This document shows positions 4,484-45,508 of a stretch of 46,447 nucleotides of DNA, piece by piece (within the stretch, counting starts at the first letter, position 1; each line of letters begins with the position of its first letter). The translations under genes were made by a program, and so were the position numbers. The notes under the pieces are model-generated. The model worked only from the letters and a program-made list of their open reading frames with translations, did no database searches and was not told the origin of the DNA. The DNA comes from Thiotrichaceae bacterium (lineage in GTDB: Bacteria > Pseudomonadota > Gammaproteobacteria > Beggiatoales > Beggiatoaceae). The stretch spans positions 1-46,447 of the forward strand of contig JAABRD010000041.1 of the NCBI GenBank assembly GCA_011391085.1, in the 5' to 3' direction.

Positions 4484-4764
4484 GGACTTACGCAACCACT
4501 TTTGTAAGTCGTTGATTTGACACCCCCCCTATCCCCCCCCGCACGCGGCAATGCCATTAAGTTAAGGAACATTTCGGTGGAGTGGAGGCTTTAGCCGGTC
4601 GGCCGTAGGCATCACTCCTCACTCAAATTGCGGGGCGCCTACCGCTGGCCGGCTAAAGCCTCCACTCCACCGTACCCTAACTTAATGGCATTGCCCGCAC
4701 GCGGGGGGGAATCACTCCCTCCCCACGTGGGGGGAGGGTCGGGGTGGGGTGACTGCGTAAGTCC
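4484..4764. mobile_element. Composite/nested palindromic element (three concentric inverted-repeat pairs)
   Basis: Outer pair GGACTTACGC/GCGTAAGTCC (4484-4493/4755-4764). Middle pair GCACGCGGCAATGCCATTAAGTTAAGG/CCTAACTTAATGGCATTGCCCGCACGCGG (4541-/-4703). Inner family B variant GGAGTGGAGGCTTTAGCCGG/CCGGCTAAAGCCTCCACTCC (4579-4668). Confidence 0.7.
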
Positions 4765-5145: not shown

Positions 5146-5678
5146 ATGTCTATCAAGAAGGAGGTCATTATGATGACTATAAAATGGCAACAACCCAAAT
5201 CCGCTTTCCTATGGCAAAGCAGTTTTGTTTTTCCCTCTGCCGGTGGTGGAGGTGGCACTGATGAGGAAATAGTGACTTTAGAATACGATATTAGTCGTTA
5301 CGGTTCTGATTACTATTCTTTCACCCCTGCGCAAAGTGACCCTGAACGGTAGTGATGCAATCTGGGTGAAATGTCTGAACTCTGATTAGAATGATTTTCA
5401 GATGGACTCTGATTAGTCAAGCCTCCTTTCATAGCCCTCATTTAATCATCTCAATCAAAGTTCAAGACCGACGCGAAACCTCTCGATATTTCACCCACAT
5501 TGCATCACTACCCCCTGAACTATGTCGAGTTGCCTGTCAAAATGACTCCAGATGTAAAGCTTTCAGTTACGTCAAACCAGACGCAACATGGCCTGGTAGT
5601 CCTCCTGCTTGTTGGTTGAAAGAGGCAGTCCCACCAGCGGCAAGTAGTTCTTGCTGTGTGTCAGGAGTGAAAATGTAA
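5146..5678 (+). pseudogene. Small PAN/apple-domain protein gene interrupted by MITE insertion (MITE 5348-5512; TSD CCCTGAAC at 5340-5347 and 5513-5520)
   Basis: Removing the 165-bp MITE plus one TSD copy joins ...TPAQSDPE to LCRVACQNDSRCKAFSYVKPDATWPGSPPACWLKE... in frame (PAN-like Cys pattern). A strong RBS AAGGAGG lies 5 nt before ATG 5170. The upstream frame terminates at TAG, which lies inside the MITE TIR. Confidence 0.6.
5348..5512. mobile_element. MITE family A copy (single 81-bp core unit) inserted in coding sequence
   Basis: TIRs GGTAGTGATGCAATCTGGGTGA / TCACCCACATTGCATCACTACC. Exact 8-bp direct repeat CCCTGAAC on both flanks. Confidence 0.85.
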
Positions 5679-6037: not shown

Positions 6038-9000
6038 ATGACATTACCTACTTTCTTTCGTACCAGCGTAGGCGGAATAAGTTGTTTCCTGCTATTCGCC
6101 CAACTTACCTTTGCCGCTTCACCGCCACCCAATGACCATTTGAGTGAGGCGACGGCGATTCTCGGTTTGCCTTACACTTCCACACCTCAAAATGTCGCCG
6201 CGGCTACTTTGGAACCCAACGAATCTATACGAAGTTGTACTAGTACAGCCAGCAATGACAGTGTGTGGTATCAATACACACCTACCACAAACCAAGAAGT
6301 TGCCTTTAACACTTTCGGTTCCAATTATGACACCGTCTTATCGGTGTGGACTGGCACAACTCATCCGCTAGTCGAACTGGGTTGCAATGATGACACCAGT
6401 GGAAATTATCAGTCCTTCGTGCATTTATTTTTAAGCACAGGAACGACCTACTACATTAACATCGCCAGCTTTTCTGGTATGACTGATGAGAATAGTTCAC
6501 TCGTCTTAACTGTCAACCTTCTCCTGCCAGCGGACAATGACAATTTAGCCAACGCCATTCAGGTCGCGACTCTACCTTATACTTCCGCCAACCCGTACCT
6601 TTGGCAAAGCCAAACCCTGGAAACTAGCGAAACCCCTCCCAGTTGTGCCCTAAATGGATATGCGAGTGTGTGGTATCAATATACACCAACTATCAACCAA
6701 ACCGTTTCATTTGCCGCAGATGCGCCGGTATTATCGATTTGGAATGGCACCACGCATCCACTGACTGAAATCACCTGTAACAACAGCATGGCTTCGGGTT
6801 CCCCTTCTTTTCCCTTAGACTTGATAGCAGGCACCACCTATTATGTCAATCTGGGAATCCCAGATTCATCAGCAGGCACAAGGACGTTAAACATCAGTGA
6901 GTTGACGCAAGCTGGCAATGACGATTGGGCCAATGCCACCCTTATCACCACGCTTCCCTACGAAGGAAAGCAACAGGCGCAATGGGCCAGTGCCGAAGAA
7001 CAGGAAGTCACCTCGAGTTGTGAGTGGGAAGAACAGCAAAGTAGTGTTTGGTATCAATACACACCAACCACCGACCAGATGATAAGTTTAGAAGGGACGA
7101 CGTTGGAGGAGACGGTGTGGTCGTACCCTACTAAGGAGATGACAGTCTCTGTCTGGAATGGCACAGGTCACCCGTTGACTGAATTGAATTGCGAACGTTT
7201 TGGGAGTGGTGACAACACTCCTTTCCTGTTGAGGCTGACCGCCGGAACAACTTATTCTTTCAAGGTCACTACCCAGCCTTCAGGGGTTCTTGATTTTGTG
7301 TTATCGGTTTCCCCAGTTACGCCACCAACGAATGATAATTTGGCCACTGCCACCGTCATTCCTACCTTACCCTATAGCAATACCTCTCAAGAAGTTTTCG
7401 GAAGTACCAACGAAGACCAGGAACTGTCTAGTGGTTGCGGAGAAAGCGGCGGTAGTGTGTGGTATCAATATACACCGACTCAAAATCAAACCGTGGTGCT
7501 TAGTGGTCTGTCAGAGTGGTCTGTGACAGTATCGGTATGGACCGGCACCACTCACCCTTTGACAGAACTGACTTGCCTGGGTTCCGGGAATCTGTTGAAA
7601 CTCACCGCAGGTACCACTTACTTTATCAAAGTGAGTGTCCCGTCTAATCAGAAATCGTTGGTCTCCTTTGAAGCCACCGAGGTGACTCCACCTAGCAATG
7701 ATGATTTGGCCAATGCCACCGTCATTTCTACATTACCCTATAGCAATACCTCTCAAGAAGTTTTCGGAAGTACCAACGAAGACCAGGAACTGTCTAGTGG
7801 TTGCGGAGAAAGCGGCGGTAGTGTGTGGTATCAATATACACCGACTCAAAATCAAACCGTGGTGCTTAGTGGTCTGTCAGAGTGGTCTGTGACAGTATCG
7901 GTATGGACCGGCACCACTCACCCTTTGACAGAACTGACTTGCCTGGGTTCCGGGGTTCTGTTGAAACTCACCGCAGGTACCACTTACTTTATCAAAGTGA
8001 GTGTCCCGTCTAATCAGAAATCGTTGGTTTCCTTTGAAGCTACCGAGGTGACTCTCCCTAGCAATGATGATTTGGTCAATGCAACCGTCATTCCTACATT
8101 GCCTTATGGTCATTCTCAAAGTACCCAATGGGCGACGGCAGAACTGGGCGAAGTTAGCTATGAACAAGCAACCTCTGAAAGTTGTGGAGGAAGTTGGGGA
8201 TGGGCATACTTTGAAGACAGTGTTTGGTATCAATACACGCCAGACCATGACCAACTGGTGGAATTTGACACTTTGGGTTCTAGTTATAACACGGTTCTCT
8301 CTATTTGGACAGGCACTGCCCACCCACTGACGGCCTTGGTGTGTAATGATGACGAATATGGCGTCTTCCTTTCCCAAGCCAACTTGAAACTGACCGCGCA
8401 CACCACCTATTATATCAGGGTGAATAGTGGCGCGTCGTGGAATGGCAGTGACATCGGCGGTATGTTAAATTTCTACGCCCAGGAAGTCTTGCCACCTAGC
8501 AACGATAACTTGGCCCAAGCCATTTCTATCACGTCCTTGCCTTATATCCATCGGCAAAACACCCAAGGGGCTAGTTTGGAAACCGAGGAGATGACAGCCA
8601 GTTGTGCGAAGTCGGAGACGGGAATGAGTGTGTGGTACAAATACACGCCTACCACTTCTGAAACGGTGCGGCTAGATACACAAACTTCCAGTTACGACAC
8701 GGTGTTATCGGTGTGGACTGGCCAACCGTTGACCGAAATCGCTTGTCATGAGGATTTGAGTGCCACTGATTCACAATCTAAACTCATCGTGACTTTGACG
8801 GCTGGCACCACTTACTTGATGAATGTCAGTGGGACTCGAAATGATTACTATCTGCCTATTTCTTCTGGTAACTTGGTGTTAACCGTTACAGCCAATGACC
8901 TTGAGTTAACGTCCCTGGGTCTCGCCAACATGATAGATGCACTGGGAAACCCGGTGACCTCCTCCACAGAATTTCTGGGCGGCATGTCAGTCAATGGCAA

Positions 9001-9385
9001 TGCTTACCAAGTGGAGGTGGTGCAAAATCTCGCTGATGAAGTAGAGATTTGGGGTAAAATGACAGTGGACCCTAACCATGTTGGCCAAACTGCCGACGTG
9101 GTCGTGTATGCGAGTTATCAATCGTCCACGTTGGCTTCTGAAGAATATTTCTACATGGTCGATAACCGCTATTCCATTTATGTTTGGGACCAGAACCCAG
9201 CGAATTTAATGGCCCTGCAAACGGTTCGGTTAGCACCAGAACAATGGCAAGCCCTTTATCGCGGACGTTTCCAAGTGCCTGGCGTGTTAAACATCTTCTG
9301 GGGGTATCGTCTGGCAGATGGGACAGTGGTGACCAGTGGTCAAGGATTGCAGGTGATGATTCATCGGCAGGTGAGTCAGTATTAA
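6038..9385 (+). CDS. Secreted protein with 8 tandem PPC (bacterial pre-peptidase C-terminal)-like domains and a C-terminal ~110-aa domain shared with two other proteins in the window
   Basis: Signal peptide. ~120-aa modules repeat the motifs NDNLANA..LPY, SVWYQYTPT, DTVLSVWTG..HPL.EL.CNDD, AGTTYY. C-terminal tail ...VDPNHVGQTADVVVYA...IFWGYRLADGTVVTSG. Confidence 0.85.
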   Translation: MTLPTFFRTSVGGISCFLLFAQLTFAASPPPNDHLSEATAILGLPYTSTPQNVAAATLEPNESIRSCTSTASNDSVWYQYTPTTNQEVAFNTFGSNYDTVLSVWTGTTHPLVELGCNDDTSGNYQSFVHLFLSTGTTYYINIASFSGMTDENSSLVLTVNLLLPADNDNLANAIQVATLPYTSANPYLWQSQTLETSETPPSCALNGYASVWYQYTPTINQTVSFAADAPVLSIWNGTTHPLTEITCNNSMASGSPSFPLDLIAGTTYYVNLGIPDSSAGTRTLNISELTQAGNDDWANATLITTLPYEGKQQAQWASAEEQEVTSSCEWEEQQSSVWYQYTPTTDQMISLEGTTLEETVWSYPTKEMTVSVWNGTGHPLTELNCERFGSGDNTPFLLRLTAGTTYSFKVTTQPSGVLDFVLSVSPVTPPTNDNLATATVIPTLPYSNTSQEVFGSTNEDQELSSGCGESGGSVWYQYTPTQNQTVVLSGLSEWSVTVSVWTGTTHPLTELTCLGSGNLLKLTAGTTYFIKVSVPSNQKSLVSFEATEVTPPSNDDLANATVISTLPYSNTSQEVFGSTNEDQELSSGCGESGGSVWYQYTPTQNQTVVLSGLSEWSVTVSVWTGTTHPLTELTCLGSGVLLKLTAGTTYFIKVSVPSNQKSLVSFEATEVTLPSNDDLVNATVIPTLPYGHSQSTQWATAELGEVSYEQATSESCGGSWGWAYFEDSVWYQYTPDHDQLVEFDTLGSSYNTVLSIWTGTAHPLTALVCNDDEYGVFLSQANLKLTAHTTYYIRVNSGASWNGSDIGGMLNFYAQEVLPPSNDNLAQAISITSLPYIHRQNTQGASLETEEMTASCAKSETGMSVWYKYTPTTSETVRLDTQTSSYDTVLSVWTGQPLTEIACHEDLSATDSQSKLIVTLTAGTTYLMNVSGTRNDYYLPISSGNLVLTVTANDLELTSLGLANMIDALGNPVTSSTEFLGGMSVNGNAYQVEVVQNLADEVEIWGKMTVDPNHVGQTADVVVYASYQSSTLASEEYFYMVDNRYSIYVWDQNPANLMALQTVRLAPEQWQALYRGRFQVPGVLNIFWGYRLADGTVVTSGQGLQVMIHRQVSQY

Positions 9386-11383: not shown

Positions 11384-11575
11384 CCATTAAGTTAAGGAAT
11401 TGAGGTGACGAAACAATTAACATAGCGGTGGACTAGAGGCTTTAGCCGGTGAGGGGCATTGCGATTTCAATTATGTTCTGCCCCCCTCCGGCTAAAGCCT
11501 CTAGTCCACCTGTCGATTAATTTTAGGGGCTTTTTTTCTCAACTTAATGGCATTGCGGCTGAAGCCTCTAGTCCA
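11384..11575. mobile_element. Composite MITE family B (outer CCATTAAGTTAAGG/CTTAATGGCATTGC arms enclosing a GGACTAGAGGCTTTAGCCGG inverted pair at 11430-11507)
   Basis: Same architecture recurs at 32670-32860 and (as a variant) at 4541-4703. Lies between convergent genes 9935..11332 and 11612..12346. Confidence 0.75.
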
Positions 11576-11611: not shown

Positions 11612-12346
11612 TTACATAAAGACCTGTTCCAACCATTTTTTAAATCCTTTTATCTCCTCTGATTCCAAGTCTATCAAGGGAGATGGAAGTTGTGTCGATG
11701 GTAAAGGAGACCGCGACGCTTTAGGAAACAAATTAGCAAAAGACTGTCCCGGTGGGTTCTGCCAGGCCAACCAAGTATAAACCCCAGCCTTGGTTTGATG
11801 AAAGTCACTGAATAATTTTAACTCCTTGGGTAACTGATTGACACACTCGGTTGCATGTTCTAACAGTCTTTGTGGCTTCCCCTGACAAACCGCCGATTTA
11901 ATGAAGTCTTCTAACATGCCATCTCCTCTATGGTCAGGCATAATCCATAAACCGACTGGCGGGAGTCCACAATCATGTTGAAAAATATTTCCAACATAGG
12001 CTTGGTCAGGAGGAAGATTGATAATATAGTCCCTGTCCTGCTTTTGTAAAATATCTGTGACCGTTTTCCAACGTGCCGCAAACCCGCCATTGAGATTGGT
12101 ATAATCAGCATCAACCACAATGCCCAGTCGGTTGCGCGGATCGTCTCTAAGTCCCCTGAGTAAGACGGGCAATCTGCGAAGAACTCCCTTAATACCATCC
12201 TCATGCCCACCACACTCGGTTGGAGTTAACACCGGAATGTTAGGTTCGGGAAGTAACTGATTCAGCAAAATTTTGAAAAATTCCACATCGCGACCTCCTT
12301 CCACCAGCAGACGGACTTCTTTTTTGGGATTGTTTGTCTGTTTCAT
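11612..12346 (-). CDS. TOPRIM-like small protein (DUF4435/RloB-like); partner of upstream ABC ATPase; candidate antiphage effector
   Basis: N-terminal RLLVEGGRDVEFF (TOPRIM Glu) and GIVVDADYTN (DxD). The start ATG directly abuts the ATPase stop (TGAATG on the minus strand). Confidence 0.7.
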   Translation of the reverse strand: MKQTNNPKKEVRLLVEGGRDVEFFKILLNQLLPEPNIPVLTPTECGGHEDGIKGVLRRLPVLLRGLRDDPRNRLGIVVDADYTNLNGGFAARWKTVTDILQKQDRDYIINLPPDQAYVGNIFQHDCGLPPVGLWIMPDHRGDGMLEDFIKSAVCQGKPQRLLEHATECVNQLPKELKLFSDFHQTKAGVYTWLAWQNPPGQSFANLFPKASRSPLPSTQLPSPLIDLESEEIKGFKKWLEQVFM

Positions 12347-13510
12347 TCACCGTACCCCCAACTTATCTTGCGTGACTATTTGCAAGTCTTGTTTATCATA
12401 AATTGTAGCAATGACCTGACCCTTATTGGTAGTCCTGATACTACGGCCCAATCGGAAGAGAATAGTCTCCACTTCACTCTCTTCAGACACCCGCTGAAAA
12501 GCATCGATACAATCGTCGCTATGGGTGGTGGCAAAGACTTGAATGTTAAATTGCTTGGCCAGCGTGAAAATCAGTTCCCAAATGAGTGGCTGAATCTCGT
12601 AATGTAAACCATTTTCAAATTCGTCTATGAGTAGCAAACGACCTTTGGCTTTGATCAGATAGAGAAGCAATTGCAAAACTCGGCGCATACCATCTCCATA
12701 ACTCTTGAGTGGTTCAAGCTGTTCTTGCCCATTTCGTTTCACAAATGGTTTCCGTTCTCCTTCCAGATCACCGGTCACTTTCTTAAATGTCAGTCCTTCT
12801 ACACCGGGGTCAATCAGTTTGAGTCCGTCAATCACATATTGACCATACGTTAGATAAACGTCATCCCAAATATCGGCCAGTCGACGAGTCGGAATGAAAT
12901 CCACCGGCACGTAGTAATTGGAGAAATCCAAACCGATTTTTTGGAGTTCAAATTGACCGACTTTATAGTTGTCACGGTCATACGATTGAAAATCCAGCCA
13001 CACTTGCAAAACCCCTTGCAATTTGAGTCTGGAACGAATGGCTGGTAATTCTAATTGACGTTTTTTGCTACTGATTTTCAGGGCCTGGCGCACTCCTTCA
13101 AAAGAAGTCAATTCAGTTGGATCCAGTTCAGTTCTGACCCGGCGCCGAAAGAAGCCACCTTCCTGATCTTGTTCACTGTTTCCCAAAGTGAAATAGACCG
13201 ATTTGAGACTGACATATTCCGTTTGTTCTGAATTACCAATATAAATACTTTCCCCAGAGTCAGGAAAAGTACGATTTGTAAAGAAATTTTCAACTGCTAA
13301 AATCCCTTCACCAGTTTCGATTTCATCATGTTCTTTGAGAAGAGTTTCCAGCAAGAGGGGGGAACCTAAAGATTCATAAATTCGTAGGGCTTCCAAGACG
13401 CTACTTTTACCGGCATTGTTTTTGCCTACAATGAGATTGATTCGTCCTAGCTGTGGGATTTCGAGATCTTTTAGCAGACGAAAATTTTGGATTTTAAGGT
13501 TGGTTAGCAT
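12347..13510 (-). CDS. ABC/SMC-like ATPase (AAA_21/AAA_15 type); PARIS AriA-/AbiLi-/OLD-ATPase-like
   Basis: N-terminal LKIQNFRLLKDLEI..LIVGKNNAGKSSVLEAL (Walker A). Signature-like SYGDGMRR. Walker B LLLIDEFENGLH. H-loop ATTHS. Confidence 0.8.
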   Translation of the reverse strand: MLTNLKIQNFRLLKDLEIPQLGRINLIVGKNNAGKSSVLEALRIYESLGSPLLLETLLKEHDEIETGEGILAVENFFTNRTFPDSGESIYIGNSEQTEYVSLKSVYFTLGNSEQDQEGGFFRRRVRTELDPTELTSFEGVRQALKISSKKRQLELPAIRSRLKLQGVLQVWLDFQSYDRDNYKVGQFELQKIGLDFSNYYVPVDFIPTRRLADIWDDVYLTYGQYVIDGLKLIDPGVEGLTFKKVTGDLEGERKPFVKRNGQEQLEPLKSYGDGMRRVLQLLLYLIKAKGRLLLIDEFENGLHYEIQPLIWELIFTLAKQFNIQVFATTHSDDCIDAFQRVSEESEVETILFRLGRSIRTTNKGQVIATIYDKQDLQIVTQDKLGVR

Positions 13511-13522
13511 ATTGGAATTTTT

Positions 13523-14010
13523 AGTAGTGATGCAATCTGGGTGTACTGTCTGAACTCTGATTAGAATGATTTTCAGATGGACTCTGATTAGTCAAGCCTC
13601 CTTTCATGGCTATCATTTAATCATCTCAATCAGAACTCTGATTAGAATGATTTTCAGATGGACTCTGATTCGTCAAGCCTCCTTTCATAGCCCTCATTTA
13701 ATCATCTCAATCTGAACTCTGATTAGAATGATTTTCAGATGGACTCTGATTCGTCAAGCCTCCTTTCATAGCCTTCATTTAATCATCTCAATCTGAACTC
13801 TGATTAGAATGATTTTCAGATGGACTCTGATTAGTCAAGCCTCCTTTCATGGCTATCATTTAATCATCTCAATCTGAACTCTGATTAGAATGATTTTCAG
13901 ATGGACTCTGATTTGTCAAGCCTCCTTTCATAGCCCTCATTTAATCATCTCAATCAGAGTTCAAGACCAAGAGAAACCGCACGATATTTCACCCAGATTG
14001 CATCACTACC
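13523..14010. mobile_element. MITE family A copy with 5x tandem expansion of the 81-bp internal unit; 8-bp TSD GAATTTTT (13515-13522 / 14011-14018)
   Basis: TIRs (A)GTAGTGATGCAATCTGGGTG / CACCCAGATTGCATCACTACC. The internal unit GAACTCTGATTAGAATGATTTTCAGATGGACTCTGATTNGTCAAGCCTCCTTTCAT..CATCTCAATC repeats 5 times. Its left end lies 13 bp upstream of the ATPase start codon. Confidence 0.85.
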
Positions 14011-14156: not shown

Positions 14157-14319
14157 GGTAGTGATGCAATGTGGGTGATATGTTTACCCTCACCCCCGGC
14201 CCCTCTCCCAGAGGGCGTGGGGAGAAAACCACTGGTGCCGCCGTTCCCCCCACGCCCTCTGGGAGAGGGGCCGGGGGTGAGGGAAACTCTATGAATATCA
14301 CCCAGATTGCATTACTACC
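14157..14319. mobile_element. MITE family A copy (GC-rich palindromic core variant); TSD GAAATTCT
   Basis: TIRs GGTAGTGATGCAATGTGGGTGA / TCACCCAGATTGCATTACTACC. Core CCCTCACCCCCGGCCCCTCTCC....GGAGAGGGGCCGGGGGTGAGGG. Exact 8-bp flanking repeat at 14149-14156 and 14320-14327. A core fragment also occurs at 14057-14100. Confidence 0.85.
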
Positions 14320-14468: not shown

Positions 14469-17400
14469 TCACCGAGTCACCCACCAATGCCACGGTGTGT
14501 TACCATTGAAAATCACCGTACCATTGCCTAGTCGATACCCTACATACAAGAATACTTCCCCGCCTGGTTGCAGTTCTCCAATCACTTCTGAAGTCACCAG
14601 TTTGAGAGTTTTGGAGACTGTGGCAGGTAGGCTGTCAAAGGCGTTGGCAATGGCCAGTTGTGATAAATTACCGGCCCACAGGCGCCACACAGGGGAGGTG
14701 GAGACACTGGCATCATAGGTGAAGAATTGACCTCCATAGGAGAATACGATGGCCAAAGTCGCGGCTTGTCCAACATGAGATGGGTCCACCTGAATATTTA
14801 GATTCGCGGTCACCACCGCGGTGGCAGCCACCGCTAAGTCATTTCCAGATTGGCCCGAAGAGGTACTGAGTTGCCCGGTAAAATGCGCCTTGGTGGTCAC
14901 ATCTTGACCATCAAACGAGATGCCAACACCGTTGTTACCCACCACGCGCAAGGGGAGGTTGCCATTGAAAACGAGGTTGCCAGTGGCGACGAGGCGATAA
15001 CCAACATAGATTAACGTTGTTCCTCTCGTTAACAGTTTGGCTGGTGTTAACTCTTCCGATAATTCCAAGAACGCTGGAAGTGAGGGGTACTCTTTGACAA
15101 CCACAAGGTCCGATAAGGTGAGACCGTCCCACGGTTGCCACACTTTTCCATCGTACTTCAGCCATTGTCCAGTTTCAATTTGTTTAGCTGCCATCAGTAA
15201 GTTGGCCGCTTGGCCGACATGCGCTGGGTCGGTGAAAAGGGACATCACGACCTTTTGAGTGGAATCGGCAGAGAGGCTAGTTCCGGGATAAAAGAAATAG
15301 GCGGTCGTGCCAATCAGATTACCTCCTGCATCTTTGGCCATGGCGGTTTCCGCTACTTCGTTGACACGGTCTGGGGTTTGACAAATGCCGTCGGTCTTGT
15401 TTGCTTTCTCACAATAATAGGCAAGTGTTTTAGGTTTCGTCACTTGAATTTTGACGGTTGCTTGACTGGCGCAGTCACTCAAGGTCAAGGTCGTTTTTCC
15501 TACCGCCCGCGGGGTCAAGGTTAAGAAGGCGCCACCTGTGTCTGGGAAGATGGGAATACTCATGGTTACGACTTTTCCATCGGGTGCCTGACTTAGCCAC
15601 CGGCTACTTTGACCGCCTGTGAATGCTAAGGTGAGAGGGGCTTCGCCCATTTCTAAGATGACTTCTTGTTGGGCTGGTTGCATGGCTAACGTAGAGTCAG
15701 TTTGACATTCCAGGTCAGTGCCGGTGTCGGTTTTAACCACGGTGATAGAGACCGTCGCTTGACTGGCACAATCGCTGATAGCCAATTCCGTTTGTCCCAC
15801 TTTTCGCGGAGTGAGAGTGACTAAGGCACCGCCATTTTCTAAAAAGGTCGGGGCTTGCATGGTGACGACGACTCCATCTGGCGCCTTGGATAACCAACGT
15901 TTTTCCTGTCCTCCAGAGAAAGCGAGAGTGAGGGGAACTTCGCCTTCGGACAACGTAATGTCTTGATGGGCGGGTTGTAACGCTAAGGTAGAATCGGTCT
16001 GACATTCTTCTCCTGGCGTGGGCGGAGTGACCTCAGCAGGTTGCACCGTGACCGTGACGACCGCTTGACTGTTGGCACAATCGGCCAGAATTAACTGCGT
16101 TTGGCCAGCTTTCACGGGGGTCAACGTGAGTTGAGTGCCTCCTTCTCCGGACGTTTCTAAAGCGGCCATCACCACTTCAACATCAGGAGATTGTTGAATC
16201 GTCACTTCACCTTGTCCACCGGTGAACGTTAGGGTGACAGATTCTCCCGTTTCCTTCAAGATGACGGTTTTCGACTGCGGTTGTAAAGCCAACGTTTCAT
16301 TGGCGGTGCATTGTCCTTCATTGTCATTGATAGTGACGACCACTTCGCCAGGCGTGCCTAATTCGACATTGCCGGAGGGAGAGGATAATTGGAGGCTAAA
16401 CGTTTCAGGTCCTTCCACTTCTTGGTCATCCAGAATCAAGATCGAAATGGATTTAGGTTGCGTCTCCCCGTCGGCCCAAGTTAAGGTGCCAGTCATAGCA
16501 GAAACGTAGTAATCACTGCCAACCAGGGCACTGCCATCGGTAATCGTGTAATCGATGGTGACGGTGCCTCGACTACTGCCAGTTCGAGTCACTGGGATGG
16601 TAATCAGAGAACCGGTCATATTGTCTAACGTGGCTTGGGTGCCATATTCGTCCACTGCCAGCGTGTCGATGCCAAATTGTAACTGACCAGGTTTCTCGGT
16701 GGTGACACCCAAGAGACTGACGATACGTCCATCTGGGTTGCCATCATCACCTCCTCCACCATCTTGCAGTGGCACAGTAGCTAACGTTGCGGGATTACCT
16801 CCCACGGTGGTGGCTTCCAAAGTGGCTTGTGTCAGGGTCTGCCATTGGGGTGAAGAGGACGCTTGATAGGAACGGTATAACCCGCTGGTGAGGGTGCTGT
16901 CACCATGATAATATAACAAGAGGTCCGCTGTGGAACAGGGTAATTCCAAACTGATTAGGTCTTTAGGAAAATCATAGTCGGCATCTGAAGTCGGTATGGC
17001 ACTTTCGGTTTGCACTTGAACTTGTTGGAGGACACAACGGGCGTCTTTGACGGCGACGGTGAGATAATCTTGGCCATTACGGAGTAACAGGGAGGCCACG
17101 GCACCTTGTTGACTGTCTAGTACGCCATCACCATTGCCATCCCCGCCATTGGGGGCTGCGTCTTCCAGGTAGTTTAACACGCCATCTTGGTCTTGGTCTT
17201 CGCCATTGCCTACCACGTCAACGGTAATCGTCTTTTCAAAGGTCAGGCCACCGCTGTCTGTCACTTGCACTTTGAGAGAATAGTTCCCCACGGCCAGCGG
17301 CGCATCCACGGCCGTTTGTAAGAGATCGCCGGTGATGACAAAATAGGTGGACGCATCTTCTAGCAAGGTATACGAATGCGTGTCTGACGGGTCCTCATCG

Positions 17401-20051
17401 GTGGTGGTGAAGATACCGACACTGGTGCCGAGGGGACTGTCACTGGTGATGGTTTGATTAGACAAACTCAAGTCAGTGGGTGGATGGTTGTCCGCGGAGG
17501 AGACCACTTTGAGGGTAAATTCCTTGTCAAAGGAAAGACCGCCATAATCCGTCGTGCGAATCTTAACAGAATAAACACCTGCCACTAACTGAGAACTGTC
17601 TGCCACTTGCAAGGCATCACCATACAGGGCCAAACGGGTCTCGGTGTCGTCCACCAAACTGTAGGTGTGGTAGTCTCCCACATCTGCATCGGTTGTTGTC
17701 AAAGTGCCAATAACCGTCCCAAAATCGATGGGTAACGTGAGGGTGTCATTGGTCAAACTTATATCGGTGGGTGGATGATTCACCGGTTCGCCGGTGCCAC
17801 TGTCTTGGACATGAATCGTCAATTCTTTGTCAAAGGAGAGAGTGCCCGTGTCCGTCGTGCGAATCTTAACAGAGTAATCTCCGGTCACTAACTGAGAACT
17901 GTCTGCCACTTGCAAGGTGTCCCCTGAGATAGCAAAGCGCGTCTCTCCCTCCTCTACAAAAGTGTAGGTGTGCGAGTCTCCCACATCCTCATCAGTCGTA
18001 GTCAACGTACCCATTGCCAGACCCGTTTCTATCGGCAATGTGACCGTATCATTGGACAGGGTGAGGTCGGTTGGAGAATGATTGGTAGTGGGTTCGGTGG
18101 TAGTAGCAGTCAGGTGAATGGCCAACTCTTTCTCAAAGGTGAGACCACCTGCATCTGTCGTGCGAATTTTGATGGAATAATCACCTGCCACCACTTGAGA
18201 ATTATCTGCCACTTGCAAAGCATCACCCGTGATAGCAAATCGGGTTTCACCCTCCTCCACAAAAGTGTAGGTATGAAAGTCTCCCGCATCGGCATCCGTT
18301 GTCGTGAAAGTGCCTATCACCGTTCCTGTTTCGACTGGTAAAGTGACGGTATTGTTGGACAACGACAGGTCGGCAGGTGGCTGATTCACAGTCGGTTCTT
18401 CCACTGTCTCATTGGGTAACAGGTGAATGGTGAACGACACGTCCTTGGATAATCCGCCGTAGTCGGTGGTACGAATCTTGACGGTATAGTTTCCCGCCGT
18501 CAATTCTGAATCAGCGACTAGCAAGGTGTCGCTGTACAGGCTGAACCGACTTTCGGTTTCGTCGACAAATGAGTAAGTGTGATAATCTCCTTCATCCACA
18601 TCGGTGGTGGTCAACGTTCCAATGATAGTGCTAGAGTCCACGGGCAAGGTGACGGTGGCATTCGACAGGGTGATTTGGGTGGGCGGATGATTGACGGGGG
18701 TGACGGTAATCGTAAAGACGGTCACATCTCCAAGCGGATTGCCTTGACTGTCGATGGCTTGCGCCAAAATTTGGTAGAGGGGTTGAACACTGGCTTTTGG
18801 TAGGGCACTACCGGCCACTTGTAAGTCCTTTTTGACCACTTTAAAATGTCCTTCGCCATTGTCTGTTAAAGTGATAGAATAGTCTCGGCTAGGTGGCGGG
18901 TTGAGGGAAAAAGTACCTACCACAGTGTTTTGAGGACTGTCTTCTGGCACTTCCACATCGGATAACTCTAGGGTGGTGAGGCAATCGTCACAGGTGGTTA
19001 TGGCTTGAACGCGAAAGCCTTTGGGCAAACTGGCGATTTCTTCACCTGTGATGACAAAGACATCGCGTTCACCTAGCAAGGCGGTTTCGCTGATTTCCAG
19101 AACCGCTTGTAAGGAGGTTTCGGAGGTGATTTCTAACAATTTGATTTCAACACCGTTGCCGGAAAATTTGAGGAAGCTGTCGTCGGTCTTAAAATGAGTG
19201 TCGGTACCCTCCACCGCGAGTACCACCATCTCCTTGAGGGCCCCTTGAGAGGGAGTGAGGCTGGTCAGCACCGGTTGAACCTTGGTAGGAATCACCAAGA
19301 GTCCTTGTGGTTCAGACACCATCTCATCGTTGGTGAAAATGACCGCGTCGTGAAATCCTGTAGGGACGGTACTATCTATTTGCAGTTGCATTTTCAAATG
19401 CGTGGCACTGAGTCCGTCTTGAATCGAGGTCCCCGTGATTCCGTCCCCAAAATACGTTTCGAAAAGGGTATTGAAATGGGTACCGCTTCCATAAATCTCT
19501 ATCTCTTGTGGCGTGGTGGAGGGCGTTAAACGGCTAGGATTGATACTGAGGATTTGAGGCGCGGTAGAGGCTTCTACCACTTCTAGCAAACAGGCGCCCT
19601 GTACCGTTTTAGAAGAGGTTTTGACTACTACATCATAAATGTCCATGGCCGTGGTGGCCGGCACTGTGACATTAACTTGTACCTGAGAAGGAGGTAACAC
19701 CGTGGTTTTATTAATCACCAAACTGCCAATTTGGACCGAACTCACCGTCGTGAAGTTGGCCCCAGGCGCGGTGAGTAGTAAATTGAATGTGCTGTCTTGT
19801 GGCACGGTAGCAGGCGTGGCGGCGATAATCACAGGAGTAGTGGAATTAGCGGAGATACTTTGACTGGCACACCAGACGGTGTCACCAGTCATTTTAGGAA
19901 TAGCCACACAGCTTCCACCAGATTTTTCTATGTCACGACACTCTTGTTCTGAAGTCACGACGGTAGCTTGAAGGAGAGAGGGGCAAGAATAGAATATCAG
20001 GAGACTCAGTATGAAACTGACGGGTTTCCAGAAAGTATGTTGGTGCATCAT
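14469..20051 (-). CDS. Giant secreted adhesin-like protein (1860 aa): signal peptide, 5 cadherin-like ~100-aa repeats, Ca-binding Asp-rich linker, Calx-beta domain, 3 Ig-like repeats, two tandem copies of the shared C-terminal domain
   Basis: MMHQHTFWKPVSFILSLLIFYSCPSLLQA signal. Cadherin-like repeats (NHPPTDLxLSNxTVTLPxxxGTVIGTLTTTDxDxGDxHTYxxVxE..RFxIxGDxLQVA..YSVKIRTTD). Calx-beta (TIDYTITDGSALVGSDYY...DDQEVEGPETF). Ig-like repeats CQTDSTLALQP..LTLTPRxVGxT. C-terminal tails VDPSHVGQAA...YVGYRLxxGxxVFNGN. Confidence 0.9.
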   Translation of the reverse strand: MMHQHTFWKPVSFILSLLIFYSCPSLLQATVVTSEQECRDIEKSGGSCVAIPKMTGDTVWCASQSISANSTTPVIIAATPATVPQDSTFNLLLTAPGANFTTVSSVQIGSLVINKTTVLPPSQVQVNVTVPATTAMDIYDVVVKTSSKTVQGACLLEVVEASTAPQILSINPSRLTPSTTPQEIEIYGSGTHFNTLFETYFGDGITGTSIQDGLSATHLKMQLQIDSTVPTGFHDAVIFTNDEMVSEPQGLLVIPTKVQPVLTSLTPSQGALKEMVVLAVEGTDTHFKTDDSFLKFSGNGVEIKLLEITSETSLQAVLEISETALLGERDVFVITGEEIASLPKGFRVQAITTCDDCLTTLELSDVEVPEDSPQNTVVGTFSLNPPPSRDYSITLTDNGEGHFKVVKKDLQVAGSALPKASVQPLYQILAQAIDSQGNPLGDVTVFTITVTPVNHPPTQITLSNATVTLPVDSSTIIGTLTTTDVDEGDYHTYSFVDETESRFSLYSDTLLVADSELTAGNYTVKIRTTDYGGLSKDVSFTIHLLPNETVEEPTVNQPPADLSLSNNTVTLPVETGTVIGTFTTTDADAGDFHTYTFVEEGETRFAITGDALQVADNSQVVAGDYSIKIRTTDAGGLTFEKELAIHLTATTTEPTTNHSPTDLTLSNDTVTLPIETGLAMGTLTTTDEDVGDSHTYTFVEEGETRFAISGDTLQVADSSQLVTGDYSVKIRTTDTGTLSFDKELTIHVQDSGTGEPVNHPPTDISLTNDTLTLPIDFGTVIGTLTTTDADVGDYHTYSLVDDTETRLALYGDALQVADSSQLVAGVYSVKIRTTDYGGLSFDKEFTLKVVSSADNHPPTDLSLSNQTITSDSPLGTSVGIFTTTDEDPSDTHSYTLLEDASTYFVITGDLLQTAVDAPLAVGNYSLKVQVTDSGGLTFEKTITVDVVGNGEDQDQDGVLNYLEDAAPNGGDGNGDGVLDSQQGAVASLLLRNGQDYLTVAVKDARCVLQQVQVQTESAIPTSDADYDFPKDLISLELPCSTADLLLYYHGDSTLTSGLYRSYQASSSPQWQTLTQATLEATTVGGNPATLATVPLQDGGGGDDGNPDGRIVSLLGVTTEKPGQLQFGIDTLAVDEYGTQATLDNMTGSLITIPVTRTGSSRGTVTIDYTITDGSALVGSDYYVSAMTGTLTWADGETQPKSISILILDDQEVEGPETFSLQLSSPSGNVELGTPGEVVVTINDNEGQCTANETLALQPQSKTVILKETGESVTLTFTGGQGEVTIQQSPDVEVVMAALETSGEGGTQLTLTPVKAGQTQLILADCANSQAVVTVTVQPAEVTPPTPGEECQTDSTLALQPAHQDITLSEGEVPLTLAFSGGQEKRWLSKAPDGVVVTMQAPTFLENGGALVTLTPRKVGQTELAISDCASQATVSITVVKTDTGTDLECQTDSTLAMQPAQQEVILEMGEAPLTLAFTGGQSSRWLSQAPDGKVVTMSIPIFPDTGGAFLTLTPRAVGKTTLTLSDCASQATVKIQVTKPKTLAYYCEKANKTDGICQTPDRVNEVAETAMAKDAGGNLIGTTAYFFYPGTSLSADSTQKVVMSLFTDPAHVGQAANLLMAAKQIETGQWLKYDGKVWQPWDGLTLSDLVVVKEYPSLPAFLELSEELTPAKLLTRGTTLIYVGYRLVATGNLVFNGNLPLRVVGNNGVGISFDGQDVTTKAHFTGQLSTSSGQSGNDLAVAATAVVTANLNIQVDPSHVGQAATLAIVFSYGGQFFTYDASVSTSPVWRLWAGNLSQLAIANAFDSLPATVSKTLKLVTSEVIGELQPGGEVFLYVGYRLGNGTVIFNGNTPWHWWVTR

Positions 20052-27080: not shown

Positions 27081-27206
27081 TAGGGTGGATTAAGCGAAGC
27101 GTATCCACCTACGGGTCTTAATCCACCCTACTCAAATGGTGGATACGCTTCGCTTAATCCACCCTACTCAAATGGTGGATACGCTTCGCTTAATCCACCC
27201 TACTCA
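27081..27206. repeat. Palindrome plus 2x tandem 36-bp repeat (AATGGTGGATACGCTTCGCTTAATCCACCCTACTCA) immediately upstream of the vault-protein gene
   Basis: An inverted copy (TAGGGTGGATTAAGCGAAGCGTATCCACC) is followed by two direct 36-bp units. This creates a spurious in-frame N-terminal extension (MVDTLRLIHPTQ x2) of the following ORF. Confidence 0.8.
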
Positions 27207-27228
27207 CTATTATTCACCATTCACCAAT

Positions 27229-38341: not shown

Positions 38342-39232
38342 CTACATTTGCTGATTCAGCAATGCTTTCAACCGCGCAATTTCTGCCTCCGCAACTTGTG
38401 CCCGTTGTTCCGCCACTTGTGCGCGTTGCGCTTCCACCTGTGCGCGTTGTGCTTCCACCTGTGCGCGTTGTGTCTCAGTCTGTGCCCATAGTTCAGCTAC
38501 CTGGGCCCGTTGTTCCGCTGCCTCTTCTGGAAGTAGTAATAACTCACCCGTGGGAGTGGCCCACCGTAACCAGGTCGTCTGGATGTCTTGATACAGCCCG
38601 TCCCAAAGAGTTAAAGTCAATCCCATGGAACGGCTGAGAAGACGTCCCTCACGGACGCGAAGTGTTTTATAGACTCCCTTGACCAGGCGAAACCCCGTGA
38701 ATTGGGCAGGATCAAAGGGGTCAAACCAAAAATATTCAGGTGCCTTGAGTTCATCCTGATAGACCCTCTTCTTTTCGCCCTTATCGTATGCGGCGGTAGT
38801 CTCAGATAATAACTCAATGACCACATCAGGTCGTTTTCCCTCGTGCCAGACTACCCAACTTTTACGTTCCCCTGGGACTGCGTCGGCAACCACAAACACG
38901 TCTGGACCTTTGAAGTCTTGGGCCCGAATCTGTTTGGGGCTGTAGTAAATGAACATGTTGCCATTGACATAACCACGTTGACGTTGGTTTAGCCACGGTT
39001 GCAAAGACTGGATGAGAAGTTCCATCTGCTTTTTATGTCGTTCCGTTTCCATATTGTCATTGTCCTCATAAGGCAAGTCATCTTGAGTGGGTAAAGATGA
39101 CAGGTTGAAAATATCTTGGTCAAATTTGGTAAGTTGTTCGAACCACGGTTGGTCCTGAGTGGGGCGAGACCGAAGGTTCAAGGGAGGGTGGTATCGGGTC
39201 GTTGGGAAGATGGCTGGTGTAAGGTGTAACAT
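38342..39232 (-). CDS. Uma2 family (DUF820) putative endonuclease with C-terminal heptad repeat tail
   Basis: PDVFVVADAVPGERKSWVVWHEGKRPDVVIELLSETT...YFWFDP (PD-(D/E)xK-like Uma2 core). C-terminal (QRAQVEA)x4 is encoded by 21-bp tandem DNA repeats at 38395-38480. Confidence 0.8.
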   Translation of the reverse strand: MLHLTPAIFPTTRYHPPLNLRSRPTQDQPWFEQLTKFDQDIFNLSSLPTQDDLPYEDNDNMETERHKKQMELLIQSLQPWLNQRQRGYVNGNMFIYYSPKQIRAQDFKGPDVFVVADAVPGERKSWVVWHEGKRPDVVIELLSETTAAYDKGEKKRVYQDELKAPEYFWFDPFDPAQFTGFRLVKGVYKTLRVREGRLLSRSMGLTLTLWDGLYQDIQTTWLRWATPTGELLLLPEEAAEQRAQVAELWAQTETQRAQVEAQRAQVEAQRAQVAEQRAQVAEAEIARLKALLNQQM

Positions 39233-39300
39233 AGTGTTCTCGTATAAAGTTCCTGGAGTCCAAAGCTACGCTTTGAACTCCTGGTTTGGATGGATTATTG

Positions 39301-39465
39301 GGTAGTGATGCAATGTGGGTTCTTTGTCTGAACTCTGATTAGAATGATTTTCAGATGGACTCTGATTAGTCATAGCCTCCTTTCATGGCCATCATTTAAT
39401 CATCTCAATCAGAGTTCAAGACTAAGAGAAACCGCACGATATTTCACCCAGATTGCATCACTACC
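39301..39465. mobile_element. MITE family A copy (81-bp core type); TSD GATTATTG
   Basis: TIRs GGTAGTGATGCAATGTGGGTTC / TCACCCAGATTGCATCACTACC. Exact 8-bp repeat at 39293-39300 and 39466-39473. Located between divergent genes. Confidence 0.85.
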
Positions 39466-39596
39466 GATTATTGGAAGATTGGGTTAATGGACTTTTATTG
39501 ATTAAGTCAGTTATAATACCATCTATAGCTATTCTTTGGCAAAGATTTGGCATAAGTATTTGTTTCAGACATTTCAAAGTTACCTTATAAAATGCA

Positions 39597-42359: not shown

Positions 42360-42655
42360 GGAAAGAAGCGTTGGAGTAGAGGCGTTGGAATAGAGGCGTT
42401 GGAGTAAAAGCTTTAGACGGTGGGCAAAAAACACTTGCCCTGCCCACCCTACCTTGACTAAAGGCGAATCTTATATATTATGATTGAACTGAATTATTCA
42501 CTAATGAAGACGGTGGACAAACAAATATTTGCCCACTCTACCTTGACTTGACGGTGCAAAATCAGCTTGCCGACCTTGCATAGCTTGACAAAGTTAAGTC
42601 CCAATTGTTAAACTGTGAAGATGACCAACCACCCAAACAGGAGTTAAACGACACG

Positions 42656-43147: not shown

Positions 43148-43149
43148 TT

Positions 43150-43353
43150 ATGTGGAATGACCCCATTGTCGAAGAAATTCGTCAAGCCAGTGATAAACTG
43201 GCAGCCCAGTTTAATTATGATTTGCGTGCCTTGTGGGAATACTATCGTGAACAACAACGATTACAAAATCGCCCCGTGGTCTCGCGACCACCGCGGTATC
43301 GTAAGCCGTTGCCAACGTTAAATTCTCCAGTGCCAGAATTGGGAGGAGAATGA
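43150..43353 (+). CDS. Small protein (67 aa) of the DPIV..EIR...F(N)YDL family; putative cognate partner (antitoxin-like) of the PIN gene
   Basis: MWNDPIVEEIRQASDKLAAQFNYDLRALWEYYREQQ.... The start lies 2 nt after the PIN pseudogene stop. Paralog of 43983..44186. Confidence 0.6.
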   Translation: MWNDPIVEEIRQASDKLAAQFNYDLRALWEYYREQQRLQNRPVVSRPPRYRKPLPTLNSPVPELGGE

Positions 43354-43980: not shown

Positions 43981-43982
43981 TC

Positions 43983-44259: not shown

Positions 44260-44395
44260 CGTAAATTCTCCAGTGCCAGAATTGGGAGGAGAATGAGTTT
44301 ATGTAGAGTGTGCAACAGGTTTCTTGTTGTCCACCAGACATTTTGAGAATGACGAGGGTGGGCAAACAAATATTTGCCCACTCTAACCTTGACTA
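44260..44395. repeat. 130-bp duplicated segment (copy 2) with family D hairpin
   Basis: Retains AATTCTCCAGTGCCAGAATTGGGAGGAGAATGA, which is the 3'-end relic of another small-ORF copy. Confidence 0.7.
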
Positions 44396-45508
44396 CTTTA
44401 TCATAACGTCAATGGTCTTCCCATTAAATACCAACATGCCATCTGACAACCGATAGCCGAAGTTGATACAGAGATGACCTTTGGCATCAAACTGACCCTC
44501 ATAGAGGGGACCAAATCCTTTACTCACACCATCGGTTGTCAACTGGATGGGTTCTGCCAGTGAAGCACCCTTGTAAAGGGCCTCCAACTTCTGAAGGTTT
44601 CCGTCCCATAATTTAACCCATATTTGGGAATAATCTTGGCTGATTTCCGGTTTGCTACGCGGTGATGATTTGCAATAGGACTTATCCGCATTGCAATAGT
44701 TGTCAGGGACTGTTTGCATCATGTAGTAGTCCCCATTTGCCGGGTCACAGTTGTCAACTCCTAATTTCTCCGGTGGCACATACAGACCCACCACAATAAT
44801 GTCTGCGGTTTGGGCGTTGTGAGTAGAGTCAGGAGTGATAACGCCGGTCAATTTTACCGAATCTGTCAAAGTCATTTCTACGGTTTGCGCTGGGGTTCCA
44901 CCATTGACAGAAAGACCGCCTTCAAATTTGGCGGTGGTGGTGGTGACAGCGTTGCCTGAAACGTCGAAGGCAAGCACTTGACCTAAATTGGGTAGTTCTG
45001 TGGAAGTTGACGGAGGTGTTGAGGAAGAAACGCCTTCACCACTGAGAGGAATCTCCTTTTGAGGTTTGTTGAGGATACCTAAAGTTGTTTTGTCAGGGTC
45101 ACCGTGGTAAATTTGCAGGAAACCGTTTATTTTGCCGGCAGATGTTGGTGTAAACGTGACCGTAATCTGACAAATTTGGGCCGGTGCCAATTCATCAGCA
45201 GGACATTCGCTTTGCGAACTGAAAGCTGGGTCACTATCTTTGATTCGAATAGATTTCCCGCCGGTCAATTCCAAAGGCTTCTTCCCTACATTTTTCAGAG
45301 TTACGGTCATGGGTTTGGAAGTGTTTACGGGAACTTGACCAAATGGCAGTTCTGTTAGAGATTGGCCGTTAGGGTCTTGTAAGTCAGGTTGAGGACGGCC
45401 GAGGCCACCTCCGAAGGGATCGTCGGCGGCCATTGCTATAGAAGCATAAGCCAGCATTCCTCCTAAAGTTAGCCATATAAAAAGAGGATATTTATTTGTT
45501 CTGTTCAT
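44393..45508 (-). CDS. Secreted protein: signal peptide, ASH/choice-of-anchor-like Ig-fold region, and the shared C-terminal domain with an inserted Cys-rich loop
   Basis: MNRTNKYPLFIWLTLGGMLAYASIAMA signal. C-terminal ...NAQTADIIVVGLY...LCINFGYRLSDGMLVFNGKTIDVMIK aligns with the tails of 6038..9385 and 14469..20051. Confidence 0.75.
   Translation of the reverse strand: MNRTNKYPLFIWLTLGGMLAYASIAMAADDPFGGGLGRPQPDLQDPNGQSLTELPFGQVPVNTSKPMTVTLKNVGKKPLELTGGKSIRIKDSDPAFSSQSECPADELAPAQICQITVTFTPTSAGKINGFLQIYHGDPDKTTLGILNKPQKEIPLSGEGVSSSTPPSTSTELPNLGQVLAFDVSGNAVTTTTAKFEGGLSVNGGTPAQTVEMTLTDSVKLTGVITPDSTHNAQTADIIVVGLYVPPEKLGVDNCDPANGDYYMMQTVPDNYCNADKSYCKSSPRSKPEISQDYSQIWVKLWDGNLQKLEALYKGASLAEPIQLTTDGVSKGFGPLYEGQFDAKGHLCINFGYRLSDGMLVFNGKTIDVMIK

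Follow-up and report, generated by a model that had tools for sequence, protein, structure and literature searches.

An unnamed, mostly C-terminal beta-sandwich domain on exported proteins of Beggiatoaceae, possibly a surface-retention module

Why should three otherwise different proteins encoded within 46,447 nucleotides of a Thiotrichaceae contig (JAABRD010000041.1; the whole stretch is referred to here as the window) end in the same tail, and what might that tail do? The original prediction held that the tails of three otherwise unrelated proteins align, with two tandem copies in one of them. We found four copies of one domain at the C-termini of these proteins, termed A, B (two in tandem) and C. 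By BLASTP, protein A matched protein C at E=5e-18 (30% identity across ~200 columns), A and C each matched copy 2 of protein B at E=2e-6, and A matched copy 1 of protein B at E=0.03. Every other alignment, covering the remainder of the three proteins, had E>0.1; since nothing outside the domain aligns, the proteins are indeed otherwise unrelated. An independent profile, built from 42 relatives with the window sequences excluded and scored against a database size of 1.8e9, found all four copies (A at 2e-49, C at 1e-30 and B at 1.5e-25, with both copies of the tandem pair matched), and a six-frame HMM scan of the whole window returned exactly these four and none further. The predicted motifs, VDPxHVGQxA, a Trp-containing middle and (I/L)(F/Y)xGYRLxDGTxVxNG, are also present. 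The predicted length of ~110 aa holds for the Ig-like core, but the full domain comprises ~155 aa, because ~45 residues forming a four-strand N-terminal extension, often beginning LPxLG...GGISVNG, precede the VDPxHVGQ motif.

Protein A (6038..9385, + strand, 1115 aa) carries a copy of the single-copy type at 8900..9367 (+; aa 955-1110 of 1115; HMM E=9e-59), finishing 5 aa ahead of the stop codon. Its predicted Sec signal peptide (6038..6115, +; MTLPTFFRTSVGGISCFLLFAQLTFA, followed by AS, with the cleavage site inferred by eye from the translation) precedes a passenger region of repeated galactose-binding-domain-like (PPC-like) modules (6116..8899, +), which matches Pfam PF23759 GBD_T9SS_assoc in four stretches (E=1.3e-28) and contains DNA repeats D4, D8 and D9. 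Protein B (14469..20051, - strand, 1860 aa) ends in the tandem pair: copy 1 lies at 14931..15368 (-; aa 1562-1707; HMM E=8e-23, and 1.6e-6 with the non-window profile) and copy 2 at 14472..14942 (-; aa 1704-1860; HMM E=1e-30, and 5e-11 with the non-window profile), the latter finishing at the stop codon. Between the predicted signal peptide (19965..20051, -; MMHQHTFWKPVSFILSLLIFYSCPSLLQA, followed by TV, inferred from the translation) and the pair, the passenger region (15369..19964, -) contains cadherin-like repeats, a Calx-beta domain and Ig-like repeats (Pfam Calx-beta, 1.6e-15; Cadherin, 1.1e-8). Protein B is a giant adhesin-like protein.

Protein C (44393..45508/45547, - strand) can be read as a 371-aa or a 384-aa form. 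The start at 45508, which had been proposed for it, is the most likely; the 371-aa form is present in the public collection (entry P0008, 100% identical) and has a typical signal peptide. This predicted peptide, counted from an internal Met, spans 45428..45508 (-; MNRTNKYPLFIWLTLGGMLAYASIAMA, followed by AD). The passenger region (45002..45427, -) consists of one choice-of-anchor D / ASH-type Ig-like domain (NCBIfam NF012200 choice_anch_D, 2.4e-14; Pfam matches to ASH, Cep192_D4 and HYDIN_VesB Ig) and a Ser/Thr/Pro linker, SSSTPPSTSTE, upstream of the domain copy. The copy itself (44396..45001, -; aa 183-384 of the 384-aa ORF; HMM E=2e-44) is of a long, ~200-aa subtype and finishes at the stop codon. 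A Cys-rich insertion of ~30 aa had been noticed in this copy, and we located it at 44624..44716 (-; aa 278-308, 31 aa). The insertion together with C267 and C360 gives four cysteines that are conserved across the long subfamily, recurring in P0013, P0140, P0147, P0054, P0076, P0085 and P0142, where they may form two disulfide bonds. The insertion marks a recurrent ~200-aa subfamily and is not a one-off of protein C.

Could these tails belong to a family that already has a name? Searches of the whole proteins A, B and C against Pfam and NCBIfam left the tails without a match. Among 46 isolated domains, no Pfam or NCBIfam family drew matches from two or more members (best E values of 0.003 and 0.0047, respectively, which are chance-level), and a PDB sequence profile search of the same 46 gave a best E of 0.074, which is spurious. 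Neither Por_Secre_tail / CHU_C (PF18962, TIGR04183, PF13585) nor any other sorting-signal HMM matched at E<=1 in the 46 members. PPC (PF04151) and PKD (PF00801) gave no match over the tail; PKD and GBD-like matches were confined to the passenger regions. Cluster names of 30 relatives were either 'hypothetical protein' or taken from other domains, with none naming the domain itself, and a literature search found nothing on such a domain. The earlier statement that no named family can be assigned therefore stands, and the domain is a genuine, undescribed family.

A word-indexed protein search with a 4-copy and then a 46-sequence profile returned 5 proteins only; the family is evidently poorly reachable in this way and an exhaustive search of cluster representatives was needed. 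That profile search recovered 1,112 representatives at E<=1e-3, of which 590 also passed E<=1e-10. The named representatives are all from Beggiatoaceae except two weaker gammaproteobacterial cases, in a taxonomic census that is skewed to close relatives because the related-loci search used a 5-sequence subset with narrow peptide patterns. The host of the window, an uncultured bacterium, falls in the same family (Beggiatoaceae, Gammaproteobacteria), and the RNase R encoded on the contig is 64-67% identical to those of Parabeggiatoa, Beggiatoa and Thioploca. The family is expanded, with three genes on the 46-kb contig and at least seven loci in one Thiomargarita MAG. A tblastn search of a plasmid collection gave no match, and a search for encoding contigs returned none for P0001 or for protein C with either start. 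The domain represents a large, unnamed and lineage-enriched family on exported proteins of Beggiatoaceae, the large sulfur bacteria. Recent partial gene duplication was considered and ruled out as the origin of the window copies, which are mutually only 23-40% identical and each have closer relatives in other genomes. Together with the number of representatives and the diversity of their partners, this confirms a modular domain rather than local paralogy.

Position and copy number were measured in 153 relatives. In 125 of 153 relatives (~80%) it lies no more than 10 aa from the stop codon, and proteins A, B and C stop 0-5 residues past the last beta-strand. The proposal of a conserved C-terminal module on surface proteins therefore holds as a strong extreme-C-terminal bias on signal-peptide proteins (predicted for all three window proteins, and for 87 of 126 Met-starting relatives by a crude test; the four conserved cysteines of the long subfamily also fit an exported setting), but not as a rule: the domain is internal in 17 of the 153 and N-terminal, directly after the signal peptide, in at least 11. 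The latter arrangement is seen in P0074, P0091, P0051 and P0102 and at four of 16 genomic loci (L002, L004, L010, L011). Some proteins seem to consist of the domain alone, such as P0003, a 169-aa putative lipoprotein, and several of the 'stand-alone' and 'N-terminal' examples, which come from short metagenomic contigs, may be fragments. Tandem copies occur in 66 of the 153 relatives (~43%; two copies in 48, three in 18); more than three were never seen, and the domain is terminal in ~90% of cases. Its partners include enzymes (S8 subtilase, astacin/matrixin, TAP-like alpha/beta-hydrolase), CAP, VWD, fn3, teneurin TTR/FN-plug, beta-propeller, Calx-beta and cadherin domains, and both adhesin and lectin-like repeats. 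It is also found with GBD_T9SS_assoc, Ig_7 ('CHU_C associated') and choice-of-anchor D, which in other phyla stand upstream of C-terminal sorting or anchor domains. Choice-of-anchor D is named for the alternative anchors that follow it, LPXTG, PEP-CTERM or T9SS (10.1101/2023.03.06.531300).

AF2 modelled the single domain of protein A as a 13-strand all-beta sandwich (pLDDT 96.9, pTM 0.90) and the tandem pair of protein B with pLDDT 86.6 and pTM 0.71, copy 1 being folded as a beta-sandwich; going by these models, the domain probably folds autonomously. The nearest solved folds in a PDB search were generic Ig-like sandwiches only, the best full-length match being the glycan-binding domain of Wzt (TM 0.46), whose C-terminal carbohydrate-binding domain (PDB 2r5o, 5hno/5hnp, 6o14) we list among the close known systems for comparison. 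A search of a viral fold library was uninformative. Most of the best-conserved polar and aromatic positions fall within predicted loops (D57-x-x-H60-x-G62-Q63, W96-D97, D140-G141 and N146), and Y136 and R137 are likewise conserved. Y136 is found in 100% of the sequences, W96 in 96%, H60 in 87% and D57 in 82%. Such conservation of loop motifs at an overall identity of 25-40% argues for a functional site.

We tentatively favor, at somewhat less than even probability, a non-catalytic binding module through which Sec-exported proteins would attach, without a covalent bond, to a shared polymer. Attached in one to three copies, usually C-terminally, to proteases, hydrolases, lectin-like repeats and giant adhesins, the domain would hold its carriers most likely to a glycan in the envelope, sheath or slime of the cell itself, or to one of a colonised surface, and multiple copies would give higher avidity. 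On this reading, a glycan would be the ligand and retention at the cell surface the outcome. The mode of action would be that of SLH, CWB2 or GW anchoring repeats or of a carbohydrate-binding module, not that of a cleaved secretion signal. Tandem copies, placement after the signal peptide and domain-alone proteins are all easier to reconcile with a self-contained binding or retention module than with a sorting signal that is cleaved off. SLH, CWB2, GW and LysM repeats and carbohydrate-binding modules also come in one to three tandem copies, at either terminus but mostly the C-terminus, on diverse secreted enzymes and adhesins, with a linker upstream and conserved aromatic and polar residues, although they show no sequence or close fold kinship to the domain. 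The SLH, CWB2, GW and LysM systems are mainly those of Gram-positive or S-layer-bearing bacteria and have SCWP, teichoic acids or peptidoglycan as ligands. Counting against a binding module, the extreme-C-terminal bias and the sorting-type partners would also be expected of a sorting domain, and no partner glycan-synthesis gene was found linked to the domain.

The Beggiatoaceae (Beggiatoa, Thioploca, Thiomargarita and relatives) are giant bacteria of ecological importance, most of them uncultured, and to our knowledge almost nothing is understood at the molecular level about their envelope, their sheath or their gliding. One domain common to more than 1,000 clusters of exported proteins, among them proteases, hydrolases, lectins and giant adhesins, provides a handle on the organisation of their cell surface. 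It marks a candidate surface proteome straight from sequence and, as a small, confidently modelled module of 155 aa, can be expressed for a ligand search. It also closes a database gap, as these tails are now unannotated and their carriers are 'hypothetical' or named by other domains.

The original prediction had compared the tails to sorting signals (T9SS CTD, PEP-CTERM, LPXTG), with a common ligand-binding or surface-anchoring module as its second option. As a C-terminal sorting or secretion domain, the tail would be recognised by a dedicated Beggiatoaceae machinery that delivers the cargo to or through the outer membrane, perhaps cleaving the domain and attaching the cargo covalently; it would then be the functional equivalent of the T9SS CTD with PorU/PorV. 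We consider this unlikely, although much about the family resembles the CTDs of Bacteroidota (Por_Secre_tail, PF18962 / TIGR04183): many surface proteins that are exported by Sec and otherwise unrelated end in a beta-sandwich, the partner types are the same, and the family is lineage-restricted and expanded to numerous members per genome. However, with 155 aa and 13 strands the domain is roughly double the T9SS CTD in size (~80 aa and 7 strands), it is often tandem whereas the sorting domains known to us are single-copy, and it is sometimes N-terminal, internal or alone. None of the sorting-signal HMMs matched it, and its host is a gammaproteobacterium from a family in which we know of no T9SS; the 46-kb contig contains no T9SS genes. 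No recurrent neighbour gene that might encode a machinery was found within +/-3 kb at 16 loci and the window. After the domain in proteins A, B and C there is no hydrophobic helix, short motif or basic tail of the PEP-CTERM, LPXTG, GlyGly-CTERM or similar kind. The conserved LPxLG at the domain start is a possible processing site, but it is modelled as strand 1 and not as a linker; a sortase-type reading was rejected, as 150 folded residues follow this strand with no TM anchor. The analogy to sorting signals thus fits poorly, and the second option appears to be the better reading. Should the domain prove to be a sorting tag, a new route for secretion or anchoring in Proteobacteria would be implied.

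Two further readings seem improbable to a similar degree. The domain might be the address tag of a new surface-display pathway specific to large sulfur bacteria, read by dedicated machinery or by a lineage-specific envelope or sheath polymer; in each genome, dozens of proteases, adhesins and lectins would depend on it for sorting and for retention on the surface of the giant gliding filaments. Were this true, Proteobacteria would have a counterpart to the T9SS-CTD or SLH systems. Or it might resemble the PPC and PKD extensions of secreted enzymes, aiding folding, secretion or targeting to insoluble substrates and being removed on maturation, and not be a surface anchor. S8, M10/M12 and alpha/beta-hydrolase enzymes bear such tails in marine Gammaproteobacteria, the class of the host; the domain is fused to the same enzyme classes in one to three copies, where PPC and PKD tails are likewise C-terminal beta-sandwiches in one or two copies on S8 and metalloproteases, and a Pseudohongiella matrixin (locus L015) carries it at its C-terminus. 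But it is larger than these extensions and is matched by neither HMM, it also occurs at N-termini, and a maturation pro-domain makes little sense for the many non-enzymatic adhesin- or lectin-like giants (A, B, P0005, P0015 and others). Least probable is an inert Ig-like structural, spacer or oligomerisation domain without a specific ligand and with an incidental terminal position, since spacers form long internal arrays, unlike this mostly terminal domain of at most three copies, and its loop motifs (W96, Y136, H60, D57) are strongly conserved.

The original prediction that the C-terminal tails of three secreted proteins align (A, B and C, with two tandem copies in B) was borne out by BLASTP, by a six-frame scan and by a profile built without the window sequences. 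The tails of A and C matched with a BLASTP E-value of 5e-18, those of A and B copy 2 and of B and C each with 2e-6, and those of A and B copy 1 with 0.03. The tails alone aligned, no other pair of segments from the three proteins showing BLASTP similarity (all E>0.1). Scanning the window in six frames with a profile of relatives yielded exactly four copies of the domain, and the window-free profile recovered A (2e-49), C (1e-30) and B (1.5e-25, both copies matched), with E-values calculated for 1.8 billion sequences. Recent partial duplication, raised earlier as a possible source of the similarity, is excluded because identity among the window copies is no more than 23-40%, and each has a closer relative in another genome (P0016 for A, 62% identity; P0004 for the B tail, 87%; P0013 for C, 57%). 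The suggested search of public sequences with a four-copy profile, run exhaustively with HMMER over 1.84 billion cluster representatives, returned 1,112 proteins at E<=1e-3, of which 590 passed E<=1e-10 and 55 passed E<=1e-30. The tail domain is a modular family, not a case of local paralogy.

The carrier genes are non-adjacent. Their host is a Beggiatoaceae bacterium (Gammaproteobacteria) not yet in culture, since the RNase R encoded in the window shares 64-67% identity with its counterparts in Ca. Parabeggiatoa, Beggiatoa sp. IS2, Ca. Halobeggiatoa, Ca. Marithrix, Thioploca, B. leptomitoformis and B. alba. Each carrier begins with a predicted signal peptide, followed in A (6038..9385, plus strand, 1115 aa) by repeated galactose-binding-domain-like modules (PF23759, GBD_T9SS_assoc), in B (14469..20051, minus strand, 1860 aa) by cadherin-like repeats, a Calx-beta domain and Ig-like repeats, and in C (44393..45508/45547, minus strand, 371/384 aa) by one choice-of-anchor D/ASH Ig-like domain; the 371-aa form of C is the one found among public protein sequences. 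Two neighbouring 300-nt segments of gene A (7316-7615 and 7682-7981) are 96% identical and their translated units near-identical, so one GBD-like repeat unit was duplicated very recently.

Every sequence motif described for the tail was found. The predicted length of ~110 aa holds for the core as the minimal unit, since the first ~40 residues are often missing from later tandem copies. It falls short of the full domain of ~155 aa, to which ~45 residues upstream of VDPxHVGQ also belong, with an LPxLG start and GGISVNG in most relatives. The Cys-rich insertion of ~30 aa in C is real (31 aa, aa 278-308) and, together with C267 and C360, makes up a four-cysteine pattern conserved in seven or more further proteins, all of a long (~200 aa) subtype. 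Judged from sequence, this pattern suggests two disulfides, which would fit an exported domain.

We examined 153 relatives, namely the best 150 of the 1,112 HMMER matches and three from another profile search. One copy was present in 87 of them, two in 48 and three in 18; in 125 the final copy stopped no more than 10 residues short of the C-terminus. By position, 62 carried a single C-terminal copy, 46 tandem C-terminal copies, 11 N-terminal and 17 internal copies, and in 17 the domain or domains were essentially the whole protein, some of these surely being contig fragments. Single and tandem copies form separate subfamilies (the best between-protein match was single for 83 of 86 single copies), A and C being of the single and B of the tandem type. 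The tail domain is joined to a wide variety of others, all of extracellular character, including enzymes (S8 subtilase, astacin/matrixin, TAP-like alpha/beta-hydrolase) as well as CAP, VWD, fn3, teneurin TTR/FN-plug, Reg_prop propeller, Calx-beta, cadherin, GBD_T9SS_assoc, Ig_7 and ASH/choice-of-anchor D. Three B-like adhesins of Ca. Parabeggiatoa (P0005, P0007 and P0019) have a short extra tail behind the tandem domains with a conserved C-terminal motif, CLFC[D/N/M], which is absent from window protein B.

Consistent with the domain having been called unrecognised, 46 diverse members of the family gave no above-noise match in Pfam-A (2025 copy) or NCBIfam (June 2026), the family profile matched none of the PDB sequences, and no description of this domain was found in the literature. 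As far as these libraries go, the domain appears to belong to no known family. Cluster members are named 'hypothetical protein' or after another domain, and those with a named source are all Ca. Parabeggiatoa, Thiotrichales or 'Pseudomonadota'. When one genome per species was scanned with two peptide patterns, 16 loci were recovered, 14 of them in Beggiatoaceae MAGs (Thiomargarita spp. from sulfidic caves, Thioploca, Ca. Parabeggiatoa and Beggiatoa sp.); a single Thiomargarita MAG held at least seven, and at one locus (L003) two carriers are direct neighbours. The two weaker matches outside the Beggiatoaceae were a Pseudohongiella matrixin with a full-length C-terminal copy (E=2e-12) and an orthologous, syntenic locus in a 'Proteobacteria bacterium'. 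Because the peptide patterns are narrow, the domain probably extends to more taxa than these loci show.

Structure prediction, also proposed originally, gave a very confident all-beta AlphaFold2 model of the A copy from a 46-sequence alignment (pLDDT 96.9, pTM 0.90), with 13 strands and one short helical turn. The B tandem pair was modelled as two similar sandwiches (pLDDT 86.6, pTM 0.71). By prediction the domain is clearly an Ig-like beta-sandwich, extended by an additional N-terminal sheet. A Foldseek search found no close solved relative, the top matches being Wzt O-antigen-cap-binding domains (5hnp, 5hno and 2r5o) at TM of only 0.42-0.46. Across 127 copies, numbered on the 161-aa segment of A and with locations as predicted, the most conserved positions include LPxLG at the domain start, F25, G27, L103, L111 and G128. 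Also conserved are D57 (82%), H60 (87%), G62 (85%) and Q63 in the loop between strands 5 and 6, A65 at the start of strand 6, W96 (96%) and D97 (78%) in the loop after strand 8, G135, Y136 (100%), R137 (87%) and L138 in a strand, G141 in a turn and N146 (77%) in a loop. Several of the conserved polar and aromatic residues fall in predicted loops, as would be expected of a site for a ligand or metal. With a median pI of 4.65, the domains are acidic.

The existence of the domain, its predicted fold, its modularity and distribution, and the absence of any annotation are established; its function is what we infer. We tentatively favour a non-catalytic binding module, because copy number, N-terminal or apparently stand-alone placement and a globular fold are the hallmark of avidity-based binding modules, as in the autonomous SLH, CWB2, GW and LysM anchors and carbohydrate-binding modules. 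Such a module would attach enzymes and adhesins, once exported, to a common polymer, most plausibly a glycan from the bacterium's own envelope, sheath or slime; the weak fold likeness to the Wzt carbohydrate-binding domain is consistent with glycan binding but no proof of it. The strong C-terminal bias, the signal peptides of the carriers, the lineage-specific expansion and three partner families that elsewhere characteristically precede C-terminal sorting or anchor domains would also fit a true sorting domain, the first choice of the original prediction. We consider this unlikely, as two or three copies occur in 43% of relatives (best 150 of 1,112 plus 3) and in several full-length proteins the domain comes immediately behind the signal peptide, ahead of fn3 and VWD in P0074, an alpha/beta-hydrolase in P0051 and at locus L002, and astacin at locus L010. 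Apparent stand-alone domains exist (P0003, behind a lipoprotein-type signal, ...LGGC), the 155-aa globular fold has nothing downstream of it, sorting-signal models gave no match and no neighbouring gene recurred within 3 kb at the 16 loci and in the window. The module predicted as unrecognised stands as such, whereas its tandem, N-terminal and apparently stand-alone copies and the lack of a sorting-model match tell against the sorting or secretion role; an anchoring or ligand-binding module is more likely than a secretion signal. A PPC/PKD-like extension removed on maturation seems improbable, and an inert spacer or oligomerisation domain slightly more so. The domain family is new but of a familiar kind, that of beta-sandwich modules serving as accessories on secreted bacterial proteins; it merits a database entry and a binding experiment, but is not in itself surprising as a mechanism.

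Several other features of the window were observed. Directly downstream of RNase R lies a full-length, 901-aa homologue of eukaryotic Major Vault Protein (27136..29841, plus strand; Pfam Vault repeats 5.6e-69, MVP_shoulder 1.2e-51, Vault_2/3/4); such homologues are rare in bacteria. An intergenic array of five to six 81-nt tandem repeats (13468-13958, 95-98% identity) adjoins the 3' end of gene B, with partial copies at two further intergenic sites (5293-5540 and 39291-39472). The ~27-nt motif GGTAGTGATGCAATSTGGGTGATATGT occurs at at least 10 intergenic sites (592, 737, 5334, 13509, 14143, 20080, 31666 and 39287; inverted at 30073, 31786, 36373 and 39418), often flanking G+C-rich palindromes (14184-14286, 29991-30093, 31710-31804 and 36289-36391), an arrangement suggestive of a MITE/REP-like element family. 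A hairpin element, GGTGGACTAGAGGCTTTAGCCGG ... CCGGCTAAAGCCTCTAGTCCACC, resembling a REP or terminator element, is found just past gene ends at five sites (894-1032, 4562-4685, 11415-11528, 32702-32814 and 33392-33488). Directly downstream of gene C are tandem paralogous pairs of a PIN-domain toxin and a small antitoxin-like gene (42605-43353, broken into fragments, and 43480-44186), each followed by a 118-nt direct repeat (43319-43436 and 44262-44379, 94% identity). On the minus strand at 11612..13510, a DUF3226 protein is encoded beside an AAA_15/AAA_21 (AbiEii/OLD-like) ATPase, a pairing reminiscent of a defence-type module of two genes. A eukaryotic-type (alpha) carbonic anhydrase (31797..32654, plus strand) and a Uma2-family endonuclease (38342..39232, minus strand) are also encoded, the latter typical of the cyanobacteria-like gene content reported for Beggiatoaceae.
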